Origin: a virus
Taxonomy: Duplodnaviria; Caudoviricetes
Direction: 5' to 3' (one strand)
Length of the DNA stretch: 57,961 nucleotides
IMG/VR virus record: IMGVR_UViG_3300038406_000153
Span: 1 to 57,961 of that record
The translations under genes were made by a program, and so were the position numbers. Shown here in pieces: positions 2,113-41,283 of the stretch. Positions within the stretch are counted from its first letter, which is position 1. Each line of letters begins with the position of its first letter. The notes beneath the pieces are model-generated. The model saw only the letters and a program-made list of their open reading frames with translations. It was not told the DNA's origin and searched no databases.

Positions 2113-2358
2113 TCATGATGTCCGTTCCTGTTGGTCCGGGTGGCCTGGGAAGTAAATGCCGCAGGACGTGTGGGTGCAGGGATCGTCGGGTGGCAGTAGT
2201 TCGTATTCGCTGGTTTTGATGTTGTAGTGCCCGTGCCGGTGGTCGGCGGTCAGGAACCAATGGACGTAGCCGCCGCAGCCAGCGGCGTGAACAATGTTCA
2301 AACCGGTTGTCTGGGCGATACGGCGGGTCGATCGTGGTGATAGTTTTCGCCAACCCAT
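2113..2358 (-). CDS. Hypothetical protein
   Basis: Start coupled to the upstream stop. Confidence 0.65.
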   Translation of the reverse strand: MGWRKLSPRSTRRIAQTTGLNIVHAAGCGGYVHWFLTADHRHGHYNIKTSEYELLPPDDPCTHTSCGIYFPGHPDQQERTS

Positions 2359-2846
2359 TACGGTTTCCATTCCTGTTGATAATCCGGGTGGTCAGCGAAC
2401 GGCAGCGCCAGCTGTTGCAGCACTTCGTAGTAGGTTTCCGGGCCGTCGCCGCCGCACACATGAGTCGTGCCGTTGTCCTCGGACAGGTCAACGTGGGTGT
2501 AGACGCCAAGGATCGCCCGTTTCGCGGCGATGTCGGCTAGGACGTACGCGGGGTCATGCATGATGATGTGTTCGCCGGCGCCGGGGTGTATCTCCTCGAT
2601 GTCACCGGTGAGGAACGCGGGCAGACTCCCGTATCCGGTGTCAGGCGGGTATTCGACCTGCTCCACTGTTCGGAGCGACAGGGGCTGGTGTCCCTGTGCT
2701 TCCCCTATGTCGCCGCGCGCGACAACGGTGTCGTTGTCGGACGCCACCCACTGCCAGTGAATGCCGGGGCGTTCTGAGTCAATCGCTGCCTTCGCCGCGG
2801 CCTCGATCTCGTCCAGCCTTGCGGTCACGAACTCTACGATGTTCAC
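2358..2846 (-). CDS. DUF6221-like protein
   Basis: IVEFVTARLDE...HDPAYVLADIAAKRAIL...LALPFADHPDYQQEWKP. Confidence 0.8.
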   Translation of the reverse strand: MNIVEFVTARLDEIEAAAKAAIDSERPGIHWQWVASDNDTVVARGDIGEAQGHQPLSLRTVEQVEYPPDTGYGSLPAFLTGDIEEIHPGAGEHIIMHDPAYVLADIAAKRAILGVYTHVDLSEDNGTTHVCGGDGPETYYEVLQQLALPFADHPDYQQEWKP

Positions 2847-3223
2847 GGTGTCCATTCCGTTCTGTAGTCGGGGTGATCAGCGAAGACGGCGGCGAGTATC
2901 CGCACCACACGGTGCTGTGGGTGTTCTGCCGTGAATTCGAGGCCGTCTTGCCGGTAGAGCTCAGCGTCTTTCAGGTAGGGCGCGAGGATTGCCCGGTTGG
3001 CTTCGATCACCTTCAGCTCGTACGCCGGGTCATGCAGCGCAATGTGTTCGGCAGTCCTGCGGGTCTGGTTGCTGCTGAGCGCGAATGCAGTGCACACTTC
3101 CACGTCGTCGACGGCGATCACTTCATCATGTTCAGCGTTGAGGTGCCACGGCCCGGGCGAGGCGGCCAGCGCGGCGGTTTCGATCTCTGCGTACCGCGCT
3201 TGAAGGAACTCCACAATGCTCAC
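2843..3223 (-). CDS. DUF6221-like protein (paralogue)
   Basis: IVEFLQARY...HDPAYEL...FADHPDYRTEWTP. Confidence 0.8.
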   Translation of the reverse strand: MSIVEFLQARYAEIETAALAASPGPWHLNAEHDEVIAVDDVEVCTAFALSSNQTRRTAEHIALHDPAYELKVIEANRAILAPYLKDAELYRQDGLEFTAEHPQHRVVRILAAVFADHPDYRTEWTP

Positions 3224-3600
3224 TTCTTGTCCTCCCGAACAATCAGACTGATCTGACCCAGCTTCGCCCGTGCAACGTGCATCTGGCGGACAGCCTTGTC
3301 TCGTTCAGCTATCGCAGTAGCAAGGTGCTCTTTCGCTGCGTCCTTGCCGTCGACCTGGCTGATAGTGGCCGATTCGCTTTCGTCGCTCCAGTCCTCTGGC
3401 CGCCCGAATATTGGAGACCAGCTCGCGTGGTGATTCGAGTCTTCAAGGTAGATTTCGCCGTCGTCCTGGTGTCTCACCCGGCCGTCGTTGATGCCCCGAA
3501 AGCATCTACCGAAGTGATCGGGTGAGTCGCATGACCAACCGACGTGAACGAAACCGTCCGGGGTTTCCCCCGGTTCGGGTGGATACGCGAAGCTACTCAT
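3220..3600 (-). CDS. Hypothetical protein
   Basis: 4-bp overlaps with both neighbours. Confidence 0.7.
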   Translation of the reverse strand: MSSFAYPPEPGETPDGFVHVGWSCDSPDHFGRCFRGINDGRVRHQDDGEIYLEDSNHHASWSPIFGRPEDWSDESESATISQVDGKDAAKEHLATAIAERDKAVRQMHVARAKLGQISLIVREDKK

Positions 3601-29763: not shown

Positions 29764-29800
29764 GTGACGGGACTTGAACCCGCGACATCCTGGACCACAA
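29756..29800 (-). other. attP core = 3' half of tRNA-His(GUG)
   Basis: TTGTGGTCCAGGATGTCGCGGGTTCAAGTCCCGTCACTCACCCCA: anticodon loop, T arm, acceptor strand, CCA. Confidence 0.9.
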
Positions 29801-29811
29801 ACATGTGGGAA

Positions 29812-29883
29812 CTGTGAGTGTGAGTGAGCGTCTGTGAGTCTGTTTGAGGGATGACCAGCGAATACACTCACTCACACTCACAG
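29812..29883. repeat. Perfect 17-bp inverted repeat and TGAG array in attP
   Basis: CTGTGAGTGTGAGTGAG (29812-29828) / CTCACTCACACTCACAG (29867-29883). Confidence 0.75.
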
Positions 29884-29917
29884 GGACTCATTGACGCTCA
29901 CAGAGGCTCAACGGGGG

Positions 29918-29940
29918 ATTGTGCAACCGAATCTGCACCC
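29918..29940 (+). repeat. Integrase arm-type sites (right pair)
   Basis: ATTGTGCAACC and AATCTGCACCC with 12-bp period. Confidence 0.65.
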
Positions 29941-30507
29941 GAAAGTTAGGGTATTTCAATGACTGGGTTGGCACCTTTGGCCCTAGCCACAGCAATACTG
30001 ATGGCGTATACAGAGAGTAGCCCCCGACCTGGGTACCGTGGGAACGATGGCTGGGCCGGGGGCCTCGATCTGGCCAGCCCCAGACGATCATTGTCGGCTA
30101 TCCGACAGTTCAGCACAACCCCTCTGTAGGGACAGATTGTGTTCGCTTTTGGACCCCGCCGAGTGGCAATGGCTGGATTGCCGTATCCCGGCGAGGCCGT
30201 TGACGGACCGGCACCTCTCTAGCCCGGGTGCCGGTCCGGGTCTACATATCGGACAACGAGTCCGTCTGGATGGGGTTATGCCGTGCAGGGGGCTGGAATT
30301 TCAGATAGTGATAACACTGCACTGGCCAGCAGCCACACCGTGTACGTGATCCACGCGCCGAGCTGGAAGACCTCGCTCCAGCTATGTAATGCGACATACG
30401 CATAAAACCTCCACAATTAGGGGGACGGCCGCCATCGGGGGCGAGACGGCCGTCCCATCGGGCGAATAAAGTTCCTGCTCGGCCCCTCCGTGCGGGGCCG
30501 AGCGTGC

Positions 30508-30684
30508 TCATAGTCCGATCACGGTAAGGATGCCGGGGTACACCGCGATCACGGCCACAGCGAGGATTCCCAGCGCCCACAGTCCCGCTTTGACTTGCCA
30601 CCGCCAGTTGGGGCTGGCTTTCCACAAGATCGTGGCGACCACGCAGATGACACCGACGGCGATGGCGATCGATTTCTCATCCAT
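30508..30684 (-). CDS. Small two-TM membrane protein
   Basis: MDEKSIAIAVGVICVVATILW..AGLWALGILAVAVIAVY. Confidence 0.75.
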   Translation of the reverse strand: MDEKSIAIAVGVICVVATILWKASPNWRWQVKAGLWALGILAVAVIAVYPGILTVIGL

Positions 30685-30886
30685 GACACGGCCCGGGAGA
30701 AGAACAGTCGGGGCATGGCTGGGTTGCTGGCCGCGGCCCACCACCGCAGCGACAGCGGGTCCACGAGGCGGCTATCCGGTCAGGCCGGGCAATGGTCGCC
30801 ACCGGTGCGGCCGCCGGTTCCAGCTGAGTATGGAGACCATCCAGGAACCGTCGCGCCAGCGCGGTGAATGCCGGATGCCGGATCAT
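30677..30886 (-). CDS. Cys-rich small protein
   Basis: GGAGG RBS; CRC..CPDC. Confidence 0.55.
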   Translation of the reverse strand: MIRHPAFTALARRFLDGLHTQLEPAAAPVATIARPDRIAASWTRCRCGGGPRPATQPCPDCSSPGPCHG

Positions 30887-31047
30887 GACCGGACCTCCTG
30901 CGACAGGATCGAATCCGCCAGGTGCCGCCGCGGGCACGGATGCAAAACGGGCTGCCGATAGTGCCGTGTGCACCAGACGCACAGCTTGTCATCGTCGGGT
31001 ACGTGGATACGTTGCAGCCATTGGCATTGCTGCTCGAATATGTTCAC
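30883..31047 (-). CDS. Zn-finger mini-protein
   Basis: HVP..CVWC..HPCP; coupled GTG start. Confidence 0.65.
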   Translation of the reverse strand: MNIFEQQCQWLQRIHVPDDDKLCVWCTRHYRQPVLHPCPRRHLADSILSQEVRS

Positions 31048-31214
31048 GACCGGGCCACCTCTCGCAGCCGCTCCACAGCGGGGCACGGCCACCACACCCG
31101 GCTGTCGCGGTCGCGACTGCATGCGGCGCAGAATTCGTGCGTCCAGCCGTCCGGCGAGTGCCCGCCGTCGTATGGCGTCGTCTGCTGCTTCTGTTTTCTC
31201 GTCTGCTTCTTCAT
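31044..31214 (-). CDS. Zn-finger mini-protein
   Basis: HSP..CAAC..WPCP. Confidence 0.65.
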   Translation of the reverse strand: MKKQTRKQKQQTTPYDGGHSPDGWTHEFCAACSRDRDSRVWWPCPAVERLREVARS

Positions 31215-31414
31215 TGGTCGCACTCCCTGGCCTGCTCGATAGCGCCCTGGCACGGCCAACCCTGGTTGCACAGCATGCACAGCAGCCGCGACCAGTTCGG
31301 TTGATGCAGTTCCTCATCGGGCAGATTCTCCGTGCCGGGCGCCTCGGTGGGCGAGAGATCCGCGGCGCGCGGTTTCAGGTGCCAGCCAGCTATCCTGAGT
31401 TTCGGCTCATCCAT
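31211..31414 (-). CDS. Zn-finger mini-protein
   Basis: HQP..CMLC..WPC. Confidence 0.6.
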   Translation of the reverse strand: MDEPKLRIAGWHLKPRAADLSPTEAPGTENLPDEELHQPNWSRLLCMLCNQGWPCQGAIEQARECDQ

Positions 31415-31599
31415 GGCGATTCCAATCTCTGGATGGGTGGGGCGGCCCAGTTGCTTGGAGGCGATGGGCCGCCCCTTTTTCGTGGGCCACGTCCTGCCCA
31501 CAACTCCGACGTTATGTGACTGATACCTCAGTGTGAAGAGTTACCGCGTTCCGCGTTATGCTGCCTATGTTTCGCAGCCCTCGATTTGCTGGAGATCCC

Positions 31600-32430
31600 A
31601 TGTCAACTCAAGCGCCCACGCTCGCCAGACTCGCTCTCGGCCAGATGCTCGTCAGCCTCCGCGAGGCTGCCGGATTGGACAGGGCCGAGGTTGCAATAGA
31701 AATGGATGTTCACCCCGATACCGTGCGGCGCTGGGAAACCGGCGAACACGGCATGAAGAAACCAGTCGTCCGCGACATAGCACGGCTCTACAATGCAACA
31801 TCATCTCAAACCATTCGCATGACCACACTGGCCGAACAATCCAAGCAGCGCGGAGCGGTGGAGCGGTATCCAGGTGGCGCGTCGCCGGAGTTCCGAATGT
31901 TCGCCGACTTCGAGCCGACCGCGACTCAGATCCTCTCCTATGAACCGGAGTACGTGCCGGGGCTCCTCCAGACCCCCGAATATCTCAAGGCGATCCATCA
32001 GGCGCAATTGTCTGACCAGACACCCAAGCCGGAGGCGGTGCATCAGCTGCGAACTTCCCGGCACGAAACCATGTTCAGCCGCGACAACCTGCCTGAATTG
32101 AGGTTCGTCATCGGCGTGGCGGCGATGATCTATCTTGACGCGCTTCCGCATGAAGTGCGCACCGAGCAACTCGCCCATTTGCGGAAACTAGGCGCACTGG
32201 CATCAGTAGAGATCCGGGTCATCACCGTTATGCATCCAGGGATGAACGGGGGCTTCACCATCATGACCCCCGCCGACGGGATGCTTTCCGCGAACCGCTT
32301 TGCTTACATCGAGGCACAGGACATCTGCCGGTACGTCGAAACGGCAGAGACGGTGTCTATCTATGATCAGATTTTTCGCTCGGTCTGGGACCGGGCCATA
32401 CCGCTAGAGGAGTACATCAATGGCCGGTGA
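31600..32430 (+). CDS. XRE HTH-DUF5753 regulator (WhiJ/Scr1-like)
   Basis: HTH TVRRWETG; YEPEYVPGLLQTPEY; HPGMNGGFTI; AYIE. Confidence 0.9.
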   Translation: MSTQAPTLARLALGQMLVSLREAAGLDRAEVAIEMDVHPDTVRRWETGEHGMKKPVVRDIARLYNATSSQTIRMTTLAEQSKQRGAVERYPGGASPEFRMFADFEPTATQILSYEPEYVPGLLQTPEYLKAIHQAQLSDQTPKPEAVHQLRTSRHETMFSRDNLPELRFVIGVAAMIYLDALPHEVRTEQLAHLRKLGALASVEIRVITVMHPGMNGGFTIMTPADGMLSANRFAYIEAQDICRYVETAETVSIYDQIFRSVWDRAIPLEEYINGR

Positions 32431-32596
32431 GTGGCGCAAGTCAAGCCGCAGCCAAGGCAGCGGCAACAACTGCGTCGAAACTCGGGTGTTCGATGGTGCG
32501 CCGCAGGTCCGGGATAGCAAGATGGGCGATGCCTCGCCCATCTTGCAATTGTCCCGCTCCGATTTCGCGGCCCTGTTGGACAGCGTTAACAACTAG
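32420..32596 (+). CDS. DUF397 protein (58 aa, not in ORF track)
   Basis: MAGEWRKSSRSQGSGNNCVE..VRDSKMGDASPIL. Confidence 0.92.
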   Translation: MAGEWRKSSRSQGSGNNCVETRVFDGAPQVRDSKMGDASPILQLSRSDFAALLDSVNN

Positions 32597-32606
32597 ACAC
32601 AACAAT

Positions 32607-32637
32607 AGCGGGGCGCTCCATCTCGGAGTGCCCCGCT
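32607..32637 (+). terminator. Hairpin after DUF397
   Basis: AGCGGGGCGCTCC-ATCTC-GGAGTGCCCCGCT. Confidence 0.6.
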
Positions 32638-32689: not shown

Positions 32690-32718
32690 TTGCCGCACCC
32701 TAATTTAGGGCGTATAGT
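32690..32718 (+). promoter_or_regulatory. Strong promoter with palindromic operator in its spacer
   Basis: TTGCCG-N17-TATAGT; CCCTAA-T-TTAGGG at 32698-32710. Confidence 0.8.
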
Positions 32719-32772
32719 TGGCGTTACGAGGTCAGGGAAACAGTCCCAGACCCAACCGGAAGGACCCGGATC

Positions 32773-33084
32773 ATGAACACCCACTTCACCGCCTGGCTCG
32801 TCAACGACACCTCCGCCCTGGAGACCGCCGCCTGCGACATCACCATCCTCCAAGATGAGATCAACGGTTACCGCACCGACGATGAAGGCAACGAGACCAC
32901 CCCCGAATGGACTTCCACCGACACTCAGATGTTCCACGCCGTCACCACTGTGGATGCCAAGGAAGGCGACATCAATGACGCCATCACCGAGGCCACCGAC
33001 CTGATGTCCAAGGCGGGATGGACGACCGTCGGCGACTGGGAAGCCGTCGACATCGCCTACGTCATCACCGTCGAGCGCAACTAG
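32773..33084 (+). CDS. Small acidic protein, candidate anti-CRISPR/anti-defence
   Basis: 103 aa, 21 D/E vs 4 K/R; first gene of an operon with an Aca2-like HTH. Confidence 0.6.
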   Translation: MNTHFTAWLVNDTSALETAACDITILQDEINGYRTDDEGNETTPEWTSTDTQMFHAVTTVDAKEGDINDAITEATDLMSKAGWTTVGDWEAVDIAYVITVERN

Positions 33085-33141
33085 CAGCAACCGACCGCGC
33101 CCCAGCTGAACACTGGGGCGCGCCACTATCAGGAGGCCACC

Positions 33142-33546
33142 ATGGAACACACCGACCCGCCCGGCATGCCAGAAGACGAACGCATGACCGCCGCCGAGTT
33201 CCGTGTGGTCCGAGAATTCCTCGGCCTCACCGGTGACTGGCTGGCCGGGCACTTCGGAGTCGACCCGCGCACCGTCAGATCATGGGAACAGGGCCGGTAT
33301 CCGATACCGGACGGCATCCGCATCGGTATGGAGAACCTGGAGCAGCAGACCGGGACATTCATCGGCGGAGTCGTCGGGCAGATCATGGACATCCCTGAAC
33401 CGACCGTCATCACGTACCGGACCGACGCTGACTATCACGAGGCCCACCCGGAGGTCGATTTCCCGGCATCCTGGCACCGGGCTGTGGTTGCCCGCATCGC
33501 GCTGGAAGTGCCGGGTCTGGCAATCGACTACCCCCAAGAGACCTAA
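33142..33546 (+). CDS. Aca2/YdiL (DUF1870)-like HTH regulator
   Basis: MTAAEFRVVREFLGLT..LA..V.PRTVRSWEQG..PIPDG..YRTDADY..WHRAVVARI; AGGAGG RBS. Confidence 0.75.
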   Translation: MEHTDPPGMPEDERMTAAEFRVVREFLGLTGDWLAGHFGVDPRTVRSWEQGRYPIPDGIRIGMENLEQQTGTFIGGVVGQIMDIPEPTVITYRTDADYHEAHPEVDFPASWHRAVVARIALEVPGLAIDYPQET

Positions 33547-33554
33547 GGAGTCGC

Positions 33555-33860
33555 ATGACACCCCGCTTGATAACGGCATTCGGTGAAACTAAGCACCTAG
33601 CCGAATGGACGCGCGATCCCCGGTGCACGATTGCGGATCGAACTTTGCTGGGGCGATTGAATACCGGATGGCCACCTGAGAAAGCAATTACCGAACCGGC
33701 GAGAGTAGGCAAGAACGTCTACGCATTCGGTGAGTGGAAGACGATTCTTCAGTGGGTCCAGGACTCTCGGTGCCCGATCACTAAATCGACACTGCAACGT
33801 CGCCTTAGGCGGGGATGGCGCGCCGAGGACGCAATCACCTACCCATCGACTACCAAATAA
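33555..33860 (+). CDS. Tandem-repeat DNA-binding protein (homing-endonuclease-type repeat)
   Basis: Two copies of AFGExK..W..DxRC.I...TL..RL..GW..E.AIT.P. Confidence 0.65.
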   Translation: MTPRLITAFGETKHLAEWTRDPRCTIADRTLLGRLNTGWPPEKAITEPARVGKNVYAFGEWKTILQWVQDSRCPITKSTLQRRLRRGWRAEDAITYPSTTK

Positions 33861-33865
33861 CGATG

Positions 33866-33898
33866 CCGCCCCCGCTGGCCGTAGCCAGACAGGGGCGG
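33866..33898. terminator. Hairpin between convergent genes
   Basis: CCGCCCC..CTGGC CGTA GCCAG..GGGGCGG. Confidence 0.5.
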
Positions 33899-33908
33899 AA
33901 GTGCGCGG

Positions 33909-34793
33909 TTAAGTCGCTTCCACCTGGAACAAAGCTGGCTGACCGGTTTCAGCAATGACGGCCTCGTGCAGTCGTTTCCTCAGATACCGCAACCCTTCGG
34001 CGGTAACTCGCACTTGATCGCTGGCGCGGTCGAACCCCAGATTCCGGTCAGTCCACTTGGTAGCCCGGAGACAAACATGGTGCGCGTGGCGCGCATATGG
34101 AACATTGCCAGCGTCCAACAGCCCCAAGTCTCGCAGCAGCTTGAACAGCCGTTTCTGGCCAGTGGAAATATCAGGGTCGCGGTTGAGAATGTTCGCGGCT
34201 TCCCGCACCGAGTAGTCGCCCTTCGCTGACGCCAGCACATCCCAGGCGTCGGCTTTGGGTTCGGCTGTCGCCAGTGCAGTCTTGACGGCTTCGCATTCCT
34301 CCACGATCGTAGCCAGCTCCCGCAGAGCCTCGGCGTAGGACGAAGGCAACCGGTGTTCTGCGACCTCGTACTTTCCTGTGGCCCGGATCGCGGGTAGAAC
34401 TTCGTGGGTGACCCACCGTTTGAACGCGCGTGCCCCGGATGCCTTGCTGGCAACTACTAGGTCGTAGAAGCCAGGCTCAGTGATGAACCACGCTTCGGTG
34501 TTCACGCCCTCAGCGAAGTTTAGGGCGGCTCCACCTGCGGAAACATCGCGCATGTCGAACTTGTGCTTGTCTTCGTCCTCAACAAGGCGAATCGCCATGG
34601 ACGGATTGGTGTGCTCCAAAACCGCACAGACATCGGAATGGTGGATCCACCCCATGCCGTCAACAGTGATGGTGCGAATGTTCTGCTGGGTCAGTGGGTA
34701 TGTGAACCCCTGCGCTGCTGGTATCTCAGGCTCACCCGAACGTTGGGTGGGGATATGGGCCGAACCGCTGATTTGCCTGCGTGTTTGATGCAT
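33909..34793 (-). CDS. BRO-N/ANT antirepressor
   Basis: ITEPGFY..ARAFKRWVTHEVLPAIRATGKY; PSSYAEALR; EPKADAWD; RVTAEGL. Confidence 0.9.
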   Translation of the reverse strand: MHQTRRQISGSAHIPTQRSGEPEIPAAQGFTYPLTQQNIRTITVDGMGWIHHSDVCAVLEHTNPSMAIRLVEDEDKHKFDMRDVSAGGAALNFAEGVNTEAWFITEPGFYDLVVASKASGARAFKRWVTHEVLPAIRATGKYEVAEHRLPSSYAEALRELATIVEECEAVKTALATAEPKADAWDVLASAKGDYSVREAANILNRDPDISTGQKRLFKLLRDLGLLDAGNVPYARHAHHVCLRATKWTDRNLGFDRASDQVRVTAEGLRYLRKRLHEAVIAETGQPALFQVEAT

Positions 34794-35000
34794 TAGACTT
34801 CACCTCGATTGTTAGATCCCACCTAGGGCGGTAACCCGTAGGGTGGGATTTCTTATGTGCACTCGCTGGAGGGTTGGGGTTGCAGCCCCAGCCCTCCCTT
34901 TCTTGCCGCTGCGTGGCAAGGTCGGCCAGCCTAAACCTGCCTTCTCTCACTGTCGCAACCGATCCCCGAGAATCCCCAGTAGGTACCCCCAGCAACGCAC

Positions 35001-37900: not shown

Positions 37901-38840
37901 GGGTATTCTCCAATGCGTCTAGTCGGGCCGACAGCGCGTCGATCTGCTGCTGTTGGGACTCCAGCCGGGTTTGTTGGTTTTTGGCGACGGCCAGCAGCGC
38001 TACAGTCAGCCGGTCATACGAGATCGCTTCAGGACCTTCATCGTCATACGTGACGAACTGACCCATCCCGCATTCATCCAGCTGCTCAGCGATCAAACCG
38101 ACATGCCGTGAGGAGTCCTCTTCGTTGGCGGCCGTGAACGTGACCGGTTCCATAGCCAACACCGTGTCGGCGTCGAGTTCCAACGGCTGGATATGAGCCT
38201 TGTATCGACGGCTGGACGAAGATCGCAGGACCCGCCCGGTTGCCGGATCAAGGTTGCAGTTCGCGCCGTTGACTGTCGTAGCACCGTGCGGGACGATCCG
38301 GACATCATCCGTATCCGAATCCAATTTCACGGGCCCGCCCCGGGCCTCCACCAGGACCCCGAAGACACCCGAAGAGATCAGCGAAACACTGAAATCACCG
38401 AACAATCCCGCATGCTGCGAGTAGACAGTGAAATGATAGACCGGGTTCGGTAGGCTCCCGATCCGTACCTGTGAACCCGAAGTCCGGTCGGTCGCATTGA
38501 AAATATCGGTCGCGTCTGGACGTTGCACAATGAACCCATACCCCGGTTCACCGTCATCGTTGAAGGACCCAGCCCATGTGGATGCTTTTCCGTTGGGGTG
38601 GAGCGTCAGAACTTGCCCGCCGTCAAACGCGATGACTTTCCCGCCGTCGCGGACGTTGACGTTTCCGCCGCCCTCAACATCCAGCGACCCTTTGTCGTAG
38701 ATACGCAAGCCGTCTTCACCGATCGAGGATTGTCCGAGCGACCGAGCCCGGGCCTGTTCATCTATCCGGTTGGACTGTTTCCGCAGCTCACGAACCGTAT
38801 CGACTCGCCCGGCAGACATCATGTGGCTATATCGACCCAT
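37890..38840 (-). CDS. Tail protein with C-terminal S74 intramolecular chaperone
   Basis: SSRRYK..I..GLIAEQL..ISYDRLTVALL, then coiled coil; start uncertain. Confidence 0.85.
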   Translation of the reverse strand: MGRYSHMMSAGRVDTVRELRKQSNRIDEQARARSLGQSSIGEDGLRIYDKGSLDVEGGGNVNVRDGGKVIAFDGGQVLTLHPNGKASTWAGSFNDDGEPGYGFIVQRPDATDIFNATDRTSGSQVRIGSLPNPVYHFTVYSQHAGLFGDFSVSLISSGVFGVLVEARGGPVKLDSDTDDVRIVPHGATTVNGANCNLDPATGRVLRSSSSRRYKAHIQPLELDADTVLAMEPVTFTAANEEDSSRHVGLIAEQLDECGMGQFVTYDDEGPEAISYDRLTVALLAVAKNQQTRLESQQQQIDALSARLDALENTRDS

Positions 38841-41283
38841 TACTGCCCTCCAACACTAGTTCCACTTCGGATTTTTGAAGGTCGAGGGTCCAGCCGATGA
38901 CCCGGCCCTGCCCCATCACGCCAGTCGGGTGACCGGAGCCCTTCACGACCCAGGCCACGTCATCCCCCAAATACCAGTCCACGCCCAGCATCGGGTAGGC
39001 GTCCCACCGTGTCGTGAGTCGCCATATTGTGGTGCCAGCGTGGATCCGGTCGTACTCGGCTTGGGCGTGACCATCCAAAATCAGTGGATCGGTGATGTCT
39101 GTACCCGGCTGGAAATAATGTTCGATGATCGGCCAGCCGTCCGCCAGAGCAGCCAAGTCGATGACCGGTTGCGATTCGGGTTGATCCTCGCCCTGGCCAC
39201 TGGAATACGCTCGCATCCAGTTTCCGGCTTTACCGCTACTCCAGTCCTCAAGGTACTTATAGCGTGCTTCAGCCGAAGATTTCGACTCGAAAATACTGTT
39301 CGCGGTGACCTCGAAGATCACCGGCAGATCCGCTTGAGCCCCGATACGCGGTTTGAGTCTCGCGATCTTGTCTATCCTGGTCTGGGATGTATCCGACCAT
39401 TCGACATCTACAGTGAACTCCGGGCCACCCGGCGACATGGACAGTTCATCCAACGCCGGGAAAATGTGCTTACGCGACTTCGCGAAATACTCCCGGGAAG
39501 CAATGACCCCTGTCGGTACGGCGTCTACCAGGAACCCCATGCCCTGCCCGATACCGTCCTTGGACTCACCATCAGCTATCAAACTACCGGCGATCACGGA
39601 CCCAATATCCTGGTCCACAAAGTTGTGATCGTTGATGGTCCGGCGGAGCCAATACCCCTCCAGGGAGACGACCCCCAGCTGACAGTACGGGTCGGTCCCC
39701 AGTTCGCGAGGCAGGATCCACCCCGCCCCAGCAGGGATATCATTCACAATCGGGACGATCATGGTCCGGCCAGGATGCGTCGCGGCGACAATCTGGTCAA
39801 TGTTTCGACCGGGGGAACCGATAGGTGTCGTCAGGTTCGTGGATGTGTGTTCACACAGGACCCGCCCGAAGCTCCCCGTCAAATCAGGGAGTTCGTCGAT
39901 GACGGTTCCGTTGACCGCGTTGCACGCCAACCAGGTGACAGAGGTCCGTTTCCTGGCCTCTGTTGGGGGCGGCAGAATGATCGGCGGTTCAGGGTCCGGC
40001 CCCGGTTCCTCATCCAACGTGATGACGTGCGAGTAGGAGCCCAGGGCCGTGCTGAATGTGTACGCCGTGGCGGTGATCGTGATCGATGAACCAACATCAG
40101 CAACAGAGAGAGTCCCGTACTGTCCACGTTGGGACGATACGGCGAGGTCTTTCCAGGACTGTGCGCCAGACGGCGACGCATCCAGTGCCGCGAACTGTGC
40201 GACCGGGAATCCTCCGTATAGGTTCTCCCGCCGGATTCCGGTGGAGTGCGCGTCGCCTTGGACCAGCCACATGCGAGGCAGCCAAGACCTACTGGCGTCA
40301 CCACCAGGCGCACCGAGAATGTCGATGACTCTTTGTCTGGCGTGGGTGAATGAGGCCCACGTGTCCACACCGGTGGGGTGCTCCCACTGTGCCGTAGACA
40401 CCAGGACGAGAGCCTGAGCCGTCGAAGCAAACAGCGTGTTGCTCAGCCACGTTTCTTGCTCCACGCCGAGCATCTGTTTAGACGGTGTGTCGGCATCCGA
40501 GTTGGGGTCACGGTTGGCTCTACAGTCCAACACGACAAACAGGATTCGCCCTATCTGGAACGAATGGTAGTTCGCTCCCAGTGGATCGCCCGAACCCCTC
40601 AGGTAGTGGGGTGTCCGCTCCTGCCACGCAGCGACGGCGTTATCCCGACCCGGCGAGGTCCGGTCACTGTTGTCGGGACCGAAATCATGGTCGTCGTACA
40701 TGGCGACCGTGTTGACACTCCGGTACAACTCATGCTGGCGGGACTGCAACAGCACATCGTCCCATGCCCGCCGGTACTCCGTGATGCTTGCGCCGACGAT
40801 CCCATGCTTATCGCTGCCCAGGTCGTAGTAGTGCCAGTCGCCCATCCCGATCCATGCACGCCAGTCCTCGGCCAGCGCGCGGACCCTGATCGTGTCGAAA
40901 ATCGTCGAGTTAGACAACCTGCTGGGCGCCAGGACAGCGCCCTCACCCTCCACATCCGGGGTAGACCCGGCGCAGGACGCGGCGCCGATCGTGAATGATG
41001 CGGGAGCCCCGGCAGGCGGGAGTGTCCGGACCTGGCCGGGGAAGGTTGTATCCTGCCCGTCCGAGTCCTCAATGGCATAGTGGTAGCGGGTGTCCGGGTC
41101 GAGGTCCGTGACGGCAACCGTGGCGATGCCTTCCCCGGTGGGCGTGAAATCCGGAGTCGTGATCGGGGAAGTCAACCCGACATCGAGGGCTACGACGGCG
41201 CGCGCGAACGTGCCCGTCGTTTTCACTCGCAGGACGAACCCGGTCGGTGTGGCCGCACCCACCATCACACTCGTGACTGTCAT
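38827..41283 (-). CDS. PhoD-like metallophosphatase fused to a minor tail (hub-like) domain
   Basis: GDWHYYD, YDDHDFG.DN, LDCR, QGDAH; Pro linker; C-terminal half resembles actinophage minor tail proteins. Confidence 0.85.
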   Translation of the reverse strand: MTVTSVMVGAATPTGFVLRVKTTGTFARAVVALDVGLTSPITTPDFTPTGEGIATVAVTDLDPDTRYHYAIEDSDGQDTTFPGQVRTLPPAGAPASFTIGAASCAGSTPDVEGEGAVLAPSRLSNSTIFDTIRVRALAEDWRAWIGMGDWHYYDLGSDKHGIVGASITEYRRAWDDVLLQSRQHELYRSVNTVAMYDDHDFGPDNSDRTSPGRDNAVAAWQERTPHYLRGSGDPLGANYHSFQIGRILFVVLDCRANRDPNSDADTPSKQMLGVEQETWLSNTLFASTAQALVLVSTAQWEHPTGVDTWASFTHARQRVIDILGAPGGDASRSWLPRMWLVQGDAHSTGIRRENLYGGFPVAQFAALDASPSGAQSWKDLAVSSQRGQYGTLSVADVGSSITITATAYTFSTALGSYSHVITLDEEPGPDPEPPIILPPPTEARKRTSVTWLACNAVNGTVIDELPDLTGSFGRVLCEHTSTNLTTPIGSPGRNIDQIVAATHPGRTMIVPIVNDIPAGAGWILPRELGTDPYCQLGVVSLEGYWLRRTINDHNFVDQDIGSVIAGSLIADGESKDGIGQGMGFLVDAVPTGVIASREYFAKSRKHIFPALDELSMSPGGPEFTVDVEWSDTSQTRIDKIARLKPRIGAQADLPVIFEVTANSIFESKSSAEARYKYLEDWSSGKAGNWMRAYSSGQGEDQPESQPVIDLAALADGWPIIEHYFQPGTDITDPLILDGHAQAEYDRIHAGTTIWRLTTRWDAYPMLGVDWYLGDDVAWVVKGSGHPTGVMGQGRVIGWTLDLQKSEVELVLEGSNGSI

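Follow-up and report, generated by a model that had tools for sequence, protein, structure and literature searches.

The DNA analysed here is the entire IMG/VR virus record IMGVR_UViG_3300038406_000153 (57,961 bp, completeness rated 100%, ~61% G+C), referred to below as the window. On its plus strand, at positions 32690–33860, lies a short operon in which a sigma-70-like promoter with a palindrome in its spacer is followed by a 5' untranslated region (UTR) with two stem-loops (SL1 and SL2), a gene for a small and very acidic protein (the cargo), a GC-rich intergenic hairpin, a gene for a helix-turn-helix (HTH) regulator related to Aca2 and a third gene for a DNA-binding protein; further hairpins stand at both ends. 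A preliminary description of this stretch had proposed a new anti-CRISPR or other anti-defence operon under Aca2-type control. The features that it listed (promoter, palindrome, UTR stem-loops, acidic open reading frame, intergenic and end hairpins) were all found where it had placed them and are collected in Table 1, together with the ribosome-binding sites (RBSs) and the neighbouring genes.

Table 1. Features of the operon, of its surroundings and of related loci. Positions are those of the window; positions after a locus handle (L) are those of that locus. aa, amino acids.
Feature	Position	Strand	Remarks
Sigma-70-like promoter: -35 TTGCCG (32690-32695), 17-nt spacer, -10 TATAGT (32713-32718)	32690-32718	+	consensus scan agrees
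Operator palindrome CCCTAA-T-TTAGGG, perfect, in promoter spacer	32698-32710	.	presumed Aca2-like repressor site
5'UTR stem-loop 1 (SL1), GGTC-A-GGGA / TCCC-A-GACC	32730-32752	+	4+4 pairs around an A/A mismatch
5'UTR stem-loop 2 (SL2), CCGG / CCGG	32756-32769	+	4-bp stem, AAGGAC in loop
Cargo RBS AAGGA in SL2 loop	32760-32764	+	8 nt before ATG
Cargo gene, 103 aa, family A, candidate anti-defence	32773-33084	+	net charge -17, pI 4.05
Intergenic GC-rich hairpin, 10-bp stem	33096-33122	+	no U tract; -21.5 kcal/mol, z -5.0
Regulator RBS AGGAGG	33131-33136	+	
Aca2/YdiL-family HTH regulator, 134 aa	33142-33546	+	Pfam, PDB sequence and fold matches
Third gene, 101-aa tandem-repeat DNA-binding protein	33555-33860	+	phrog_3377, 4.3e-11; tblastn
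Bidirectional terminator-like hairpin at operon/antirepressor boundary	33866-33898	both	z -5.0 (+), -5.3 (-)
Terminator-like hairpin, 13-bp stem	32607-32637	+	-28.7 kcal/mol, z -5.8, 0/200 shuffles as stable
Xre-HTH/DUF5753 gene and overlapping DUF397 gene	31558-32596	+	directly upstream of operon
Antirepressor gene, Bro-N and KilAC domains	33909-34793	-	phrog_130, 9.5e-51
Tyrosine integrase	28108-29763		
Extra HTH_17-like protein (related loci)	L011 2251-2757; L022 1483-1995; L026 1258-1773; L027 1553-2059; also L025, L031		
phrog_15934 protein (related loci)	L016 2911-3798; also L008, L011, L018, L029, L031		

To judge from profile, sequence and modelled-fold comparisons, the regulator is a true Aca2/YdiL-family protein made up of an HTH and a C-terminal alpha/beta domain (in Aca2 the dimerization domain), which bears out the Aca2/DUF1870-like HTH of the preliminary description. 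Against the Pfam family Aca2_YdiL (PF08965, formerly DUF1870) it scored 30.2 bits (cut-off 23.8, E = 5.7e-7), with residues 15–111 aligned to profile positions 1–99 of 118. A phmmer search of all PDB sequences returned Aca2 proteins as the four best matches (7ezy, E = 9.9e-5, residues 15–113; then 8w35, 7vjo and 7b5j), and these alignments span both domains. An AlphaFold2 model built from 24 homologues reached a predicted local distance difference test (pLDDT) score of 90.8. Its ten best PDB folds were Aca2 (ZF40 and Oceanimonas), YdiL (1s4k) and SO3848 (2ox6), with E values of 8e-6 to 4.5e-5 and template-modelling (TM) scores, normalized by target, of 0.56–0.83 over 116–135 columns; after a gap, HTH-only matches (such as C.Kpn2I, HigA2 and Aca1) followed at E >= 0.03. 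Identity to the solved Aca2 proteins is only 23–30%.

Related loci were retrieved with both proteins as queries. The cargo family yielded eight distinct loci and the HTH 19 genome loci, which come from Streptomyces, Amycolatopsis, Actinoplanes, Paractinoplanes, Streptosporangium, Lentzea, Cellulomonas, Nocardiopsis and Microbispora and include three contigs (L014, L020 and L023) also retrieved by the cargo query (as L004, L008 and L006, respectively). A tblastn search with the HTH in the phage collection returned 33 records, among them Streptomyces phage Gilgamesh (gp87, 64% identical to the window HTH), Thermobifida phage P1312 (orf044, 39%) and several Mycobacterium phages (35–42%). After removal of duplicates, 25 loci with a close HTH homologue remained, making 26 operons with that of the window and representing at least nine actinobacterial genera and two isolated phages. 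The mean column identity of the HTH alignment is 75%; the phage copies among the 25 loci are 39–64% identical to the window HTH. Among 201 genomes sampled from the genus, at least nine carry the HTH, in one copy each, a lower bound in that 21 candidates were scored per genome; this sporadic single-copy occurrence fits a mobile accessory gene. The Aca2-like protein of P1312, with 286 aa, is about twice the usual length.

As the 19 genome loci were retrieved by the HTH alone, they are unbiased for the type of cargo. The slot directly upstream of the HTH is occupied alternately by at least seven unrelated acidic families. That of the window, family A, is the commonest (ten of the 19 loci, one of them with a fusion of families B and A); family B was found in three loci, family F in two and families C, D, E and G in one each, family C also being represented by gp86 of Gilgamesh. 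Outside the fusions there was no BLAST match between families at 1e-3, and none of the seven has a Pfam or PHROG family. All of the cargos are strongly acidic, with net charges of -9 to -40 and pI values of 4.05–4.4. Variation of the upstream gene among homologous loci, which the preliminary description had set as a check, was thereby found, in front of HTHs that in the 23 copies from genomes and IMG/VR are 57–75% identical to that of the window.

The control region stands in the window and in all 25 non-duplicate loci with a close HTH, whatever the first gene; it travels with the HTH gene and not with the cargo. Its order is the same throughout: a -35 element, a palindrome of ~13–19 bp in the spacer, a -10 element, SL1 about 10 nt further on, SL2 and the ATG. 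The promoter layout (TTGnnn, 16–19 nt, TAnnnT) was matched by a regular expression in the window and 18 loci and was recognized by eye in the remainder. The region is absent from Mycobacterium phage Bipper, the HTH of which is 38% identical, and from a Kitasatospora locus (L005) that has the cargo domain and no Aca2-like gene. In the latter (~2300–3520) the C-terminal tail joined to the family A domain is HTH-like and of another kind, so that the same cargo occurs with another regulator; the long palindrome in the promoter is a different one, and neither of the two UTR hairpins is present.

This spacer palindrome of the window is presumed to be the binding site of the dimeric Aca2-like repressor. 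It occurs as a single exact copy in the window; when up to two mismatches were allowed there were three matches (two of them being the operator itself read on both strands) versus 0.30 expected, a number reached in none of 100 shuffles. No second copy of the operator or of the UTR motif, as for control in trans, was found elsewhere in the window. A palindrome with at most two mismatches lies between the -35 and -10 elements in 23 of 24 loci and is perfect in 21. The exception is L025 (Thr52), where the scan picked an unrelated site and where, by eye, the spacer has a GCTTCC-type repeat with one mismatch. The outer bases of the operator follow residue 52 of the HTH in 21 of the 24 loci: all 17 loci with Lys52 have operators of the GCTTCC...GGAAGC type and the four with Arg52 (the window, L013, L029 and L031) have operators of the CACCC/GCCC...GGG type, while the single Gly52 and single Gln52 loci have variants of their own. 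On the best HTH tree the four Arg52 rows amount to four changes; no inner branch of this tree is strongly supported, and independent origins of the switch were not upheld because the poor resolution leaves a single origin possible.

Both UTR stem-loops are present in the minimum-energy fold of the window UTR (-17.8 kcal/mol, z = -2.4, 4 of 200 shuffles as stable). This is a modest value when the window is taken alone, and the case for the hairpins therefore rests on comparison across loci. In the alignment of 26 UTRs, 96.1% of 310 cells are standard pairs and five of 12 pairs show compensatory changes (helix 1, 96.1% paired with changes in three of eight pairs; helix 2, 96.2% paired with changes in two of four pairs). 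The pairing score was reached by none of 500 shuffles, and pairing fell to 59–64% when the 3' partners were shifted by one column. The consensus of SL1 is GGTCAGGGG-loop-CCCCAGACC and that of SL2 is CCGG-AAGGA[A/C]-CCGG. In SL1 of the window an A-U pair replaces the G-C of most loci, and pair 3–23 is UG in two loci; such G-U wobble cells are more in keeping with an RNA helix than with a DNA palindrome. Control through a palindrome and UTR stem-loops of the Aca2 type, as in the preliminary description, is borne out to the extent that the palindrome and both hairpins are conserved and covary across the loci. SL1 is duplicated in tandem in L002 (phage P1312, 2040–2118) and L030 (1765–1837). Rfam contains no family for the published actinobacterial Aca2 motif (see below), and a search of it yielded nothing better than a miRNA model, unrelated and at E = 1.9.

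The cargo agrees with its initial characterization as a protein with a charge of about -17 and no recognized family, since no family was found for it in Pfam, PHROGs, PADLOC or NCBIfam. Neither the operon (megablast) nor the cargo (tblastn) gave a match in the phage collection; a divergent member of family A matched only orf41 of Thermobifida phage P318 there. This 387-aa protein (L033, 2638–3801) carries the family A domain in its middle, between flanks without a Pfam family. In a profile search of 1.84 billion representatives, family A comprised 156 clusters (50% identity) at E <= 1e-3 and 91 at E <= 1e-10. Its members are mostly ~100 aa in length, with a median net charge of -14 (71 members). 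The conserved positions are Trp8, Trp46, Trp83, Trp89, Ala7, Ala74, Gly82, Val100 and three Asp; those conserved in at least 70% of the 71 members are Trp, Ala, Gly, Val, Leu, Thr, one His (75%) and three Asp, and no catalytic-type set of conserved residues was found among these members.

A model of the cargo calculated from the 71 members (pLDDT 96.3, predicted TM score 0.85) consists of a beta-sheet containing two long hairpin strands, and of one helix. Foldseek gave no PDB match at E <= 0.001 (best match GFRP, E = 0.16, TM 0.32), and the best match of VIA-align among 48,161 chains, with Z = 5.0, reflects a common arrangement only. In view of this lack of a convincing solved relative no known fold is assigned to the cargo, and newness of the fold is not claimed. 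Two real relatives were found in BFVD, phage proteins of 387 and 137 aa, and a search of the ESM Atlas gave only unnamed actinobacterial clusters, all under the score bar of 0.9. Some members are fusions in which Pfam recognizes a second domain: Aca2_YdiL in P0017 (30.5 bits), HTH_31 and HTH_3 in P0086 (above the cut-off) and PhdYeFM_antitox in P0033 (41 bits). A MerR/excisionase-like C-terminal tail and a ribbon-helix-helix-like stretch were recognized in further fusions by eye only. A predicted complex of two HTH chains and one cargo chain scored 0.00; it was calculated with no controls and is not used either way.

Between the cargo stop codon and the RBS of the HTH gene all 26 operons contain a perfect or near-perfect GC-rich hairpin of 9–18 bp, the sequences of which are unrelated; seven T follow the one in P1312. 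The hairpin would be a partial terminator or a 3'-end stabilizer of the cargo message, and in either case the repressor would be scarcer than the cargo. No mention of it was found in the portion of the Aca2 literature drawn upon (PMC13551039).

Further genes accompany the conserved module in some loci. Six have an extra protein of 168–172 aa with a weakly HTH_17/MerR-like N-terminus between the control cassette and the cargo. In at least six a protein of ~290 aa that matches phrog_15934 (5.9e-44, no Pfam family) directly follows the HTH; its gene, which the window lacks, may form part of the operon of the Aca2-like gene. The third gene of the window operon does encode an internal double repeat, as had been noted, and its product resembles the DNA-binding C-terminus of phage proteins that carry the annotation of HNH homing endonucleases. 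The match covers only the C-terminal repeats (positions 98–191 of 196) of the phrog_3377 profile and Pfam finds no HNH domain in the product; an HNH homing endonuclease was ruled out, as the DNA-binding repeat module stands alone without a nuclease domain. The preliminary description had listed this gene within the operon. It lies outside the conserved module and is specific to this phage: no homologue was found in loci L001–L012 or among the recurrent neighbouring genes of the others (0 of 25 related loci).

The virus is a temperate siphophage of an actinobacterium, since its complete genome contains a tyrosine integrase together with terminase, capsid and tail genes; the tail, capsid and large terminase genes are on the minus strand, and there is one tRNA-Ile. 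The sole sequencing run that contains the record is a sediment metagenome. The operon is located in the integrase-proximal accessory region, between an Xre-HTH/DUF5753 and DUF397 gene pair and a convergent antirepressor gene. The Xre-HTH/DUF5753 protein (290 aa; Pfam 1.2e-29; phrog_9908 4.6e-40) and the DUF397 protein (58 aa, 1.8e-15), the start of which overlaps the end of the DUF5753 gene by 11 nt, form a Streptomyces-style regulatory pair inside the phage that is ended by a terminator hairpin of its own; this terminator-like hairpin closes the pair and insulates the operon. At the other end, the bidirectional terminator is common to the operon and the antirepressor gene.

A terminator scan showed another 13-pair hairpin with a T-rich tail on the plus strand (34868–34897), just past the 5' end of the antirepressor gene. 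The ~1.8-kb segment that separates the Xre/DUF5753 gene from the integrase (29764–31557) contains overlapping open reading frames only, two of which were tested and gave no PHROG match; it may hold attP or small regulatory genes. In the tail region an 818-aa protein (38827–41283, minus strand) matches a phosphodiesterase/hydrolase family (phrog_24476, 1.5e-94) with its N-terminal half and a minor tail protein with its C-terminal half. Among the isolated phages, P1312 has a serine recombinase match and P318 has neither an integrase nor a serine recombinase match. Gilgamesh had at first been taken as lytic, for use against a role in lysogeny; this argument was dropped because the record has a Phage_integrase match (40.3 bits).

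Control of this kind has precedents. In phage ZF40, Aca2 binds an inverted repeat that overlaps its promoter, and an Aca2 dimer binds two 5'UTR hairpins with the RBS blocked (Feussner et al., 2026; PMC13551039, cited throughout from a portion of its text, as is PMC9410906 below). In Aca2 operons the motif in the DNA overlaps the promoter and that in the RNA begins just after the transcription start site (TSS), and two RNA motifs, the 'proteo-motif' and the 'actino-motif', were defined by Birkholz et al. (2024) (both in PMC13551039). In the same source, control by Aca1 or Aca2 is predicted for 450 genes, and a function is assigned to fewer than half of these. Because the operon fits this published DNA-plus-RNA control, its control architecture is already known and is not new; an actinobacterial Aca2 5'UTR RNA motif had been described before (PMC13551039, citing Birkholz et al., 2024).

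Among the closest known counterparts is acrIF8-aca2 of Pectobacterium phage ZF40 (Aca2, 7vjo/7vjq/7b5j), which shares with the window a small cargo gene followed by aca2, the whole Aca2 fold, an inverted repeat in the core promoter, two 5'UTR hairpins and the involvement of the cargo RBS (PMC13551039). It differs in that the host here is of the Actinomycetota, the operator and hairpin sequences are others, a strong hairpin separates the cargo from the regulator gene and the cargo is unrelated to AcrIF8 (no match). The 'actino-motif' operons are alike in having an actinobacterial Aca2 homologue, a promoter DNA motif and structured RNA after the predicted TSS, and their uncharacterized downstream genes were treated by the authors as anti-defence candidates (PMC13551039). 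A cargo joined to a DNA-binding domain, as in P0017, P0086 and P0033, is also seen in the Acr–Aca fusions AcrIIA1 and AcrIF24 (named in PMC9410906 and PMC13551039); the protein of the window is unfused and shows no sequence or fold relation to those anti-CRISPRs.

The reading that we put forward is that of an Aca2-type self-repressing actinobacterial operon, the acidic cargo of which blocks a host defence; as a whole it seems to us evenly balanced between right and wrong. Its two parts differ. Self-repression of the Aca2 DNA-plus-RNA type is very probable from the sequence comparisons. That the cargo binds and blocks a component of a host defence, as an anti-CRISPR or as another anti-defence protein, is to us its likeliest role, which we place slightly short of an even chance. 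The sigma-70-like promoter would fire on entry of the DNA and give a burst of the acidic, non-enzymatic 103-aa protein, and owing to the GC-rich hairpin after the cargo gene only some transcripts would continue into the Aca2-like gene. The dimeric Aca2-like protein would then bind the spacer palindrome and switch transcription off, as its family, the position of the site and the co-variation of protein and operator suggest. It would probably also bind the two 5'UTR hairpins and hide the RBS, as ZF40 Aca2 does; this step is suggested by the covariation and the literature.

The anti-defence role is argued from the swapping of cargos while the Aca2 switch stays conserved, the smallness and extreme acidity of the cargo, its lack of catalytic residues and the many-to-many links between cargo and autoregulator domains. 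It is from this association that we infer an anti-CRISPR or a DNA mimic. Ocr and ArdA are DNA-mimic anti-restriction proteins of phages and plasmids that are small, very acidic and expressed early. The cargo resembles them in size and acidity and differs from them in its model, a beta-sheet with one helix instead of a helical DNA-shaped dimer, and it has no solved fold match at Foldseek E <= 1e-3 or at VIA-align Z > 5.0.

Several observations weigh against this proposal or against its novelty. The cargo shows no likeness, by sequence or fold, to known anti-CRISPR or anti-defence proteins in Pfam, PHROGs, PADLOC, NCBIfam or the PDB, and nothing links any member of the cargo families to a particular defence. 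A known acr gene lies upstream of only 35 of 1223 Aca2-like proteins (Shehreen, 2022; PMC9410906), which makes association with Aca2 weak evidence for an anti-CRISPR. The control region is most likely of the published 'actino-motif' type, to which it was matched by description only. Seven of the eight distinct loci from the cargo query also have the HTH, so that family A and the HTH form a fairly stable pair, which would also fit a functional unit of two proteins. Several related operons place additional conserved genes behind this control region; the small acidic protein need not be the main output. The Phd/YefM fusion P0033 points towards toxin–antitoxin biology, and the attenuator role of the intergenic hairpin is one that we infer.

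An alternative that we regard as unlikely is that the acidic protein acts on a regulator and not on a defence: as an anti-repressor or counter-silencer, much like a DNA mimic, it would titrate a DNA-binding protein. Its target could be the Aca2-like repressor, the Xre/DUF5753 regulator of the phage or a host nucleoid protein, and the operon would be part of a lysis–lysogeny or early-expression switch. Such a role would suit the integrase-proximal control region in which the operon lies, flanked by the Xre-DUF5753/DUF397 pair and the antirepressor gene, and it would suit the repeated occurrence of family A fused to, or beside, DNA-binding domains (Aca2_YdiL, HTH_31/HTH_3 and PhdYeFM by Pfam); strong negative charge is moreover the sole trait common to the seven cargo families. 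The pairing of one conserved HTH with seven unrelated cargos is, however, not easily reconciled with cargos that bind the HTH specifically. With one operator and one UTR motif in the window, the loop would have no regulated output beyond the cargo, and the Aca2 literature accounts for the architecture without binding of the cargo to the repressor.

Still less probable in our estimation is a module of the toxin–antitoxin type, with the toxin first, or one for abortive infection or superinfection exclusion from the prophage, in which the HTH would be both antitoxin and repressor and the cargo the effector. The Aca2 fold is kin to Xre-type antitoxins: HigA2 and MqsA are weak HTH-only matches of the regulator (E = 0.07–0.45), and an MqsA-family NCBIfam model matches it below the cut-off. 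The gene order of higBA and mqsRA is likewise toxin-first, and the operon shares with these systems a small first gene and, after it, an autorepressor of the HTH type that has a palindromic operator; their HTH folds are distant relatives. Actinophages often carry prophage-expressed defence genes near the integrase, where this operon also lies. The Phd/YefM antitoxin domain on some members of family A (P0033), the sporadic single-copy distribution and the absence of a known acr from most Aca2-like genes (PMC9410906) count in the same direction. Unlike known toxins, however, the cargo has a net charge of -17 and no conserved catalytic-type residues; it belongs to no toxin family, no PADLOC model matches it and this 'toxin' commonly shares a single chain with DNA-binding domains. 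The strong hairpin before the HTH in all 26 operons, with its tail of seven T in P1312, would disfavour expression of the second gene; less of the supposed antitoxin than of the toxin would then be made, a balance that a toxin–antitoxin pair could not tolerate.

That the features are due to chance and the small open reading frame is not a real gene has practically no probability left: high-GC DNA does yield many spurious reading frames and hairpins and the fold of the window UTR alone is modest (z = -2.4), but this notion is already refuted by the 156 clusters of family A with their model of pLDDT 96 and by the covarying control region of 26 operons from at least nine genera and two isolated phages.

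Streptomyces and related actinobacteria are the hosts of most antibiotic producers, and no experimentally characterized anti-CRISPR or anti-defence protein from their phages was found in the literature searched. The operon is a concrete anti-defence candidate for this group, and the search handle that it provides (promoter palindrome, two UTR hairpins and Aca2-like gene) recovered six further candidate families. Taken together, the Aca2 control region may mark a largely unexplored anti-defence reservoir in the Actinomycetota, with family A as a non-enzymatic inhibitor of new fold and the intergenic hairpin as an attenuator that sets a high ratio of inhibitor to repressor; for this combined proposal our expectation is tentative and falls on the doubtful side. 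If it is true, the targets of family A would possibly be type I-E Cascade/Cas3, Pgl/BREX or a restriction system, and with family A an inhibitor of this sort would be known for the first time for Streptomyces and related bacteria. If the acidic proteins block defences, they would be an aid to phage work and genetic manipulation in actinobacteria, and, through natural covariation data, a second phylum would be added to the model of Aca2 DNA-plus-RNA control. If they are not anti-defence proteins, the Aca2-type switch would be one that is used for another purpose as well, which would matter for searches for anti-CRISPRs by association with aca genes.

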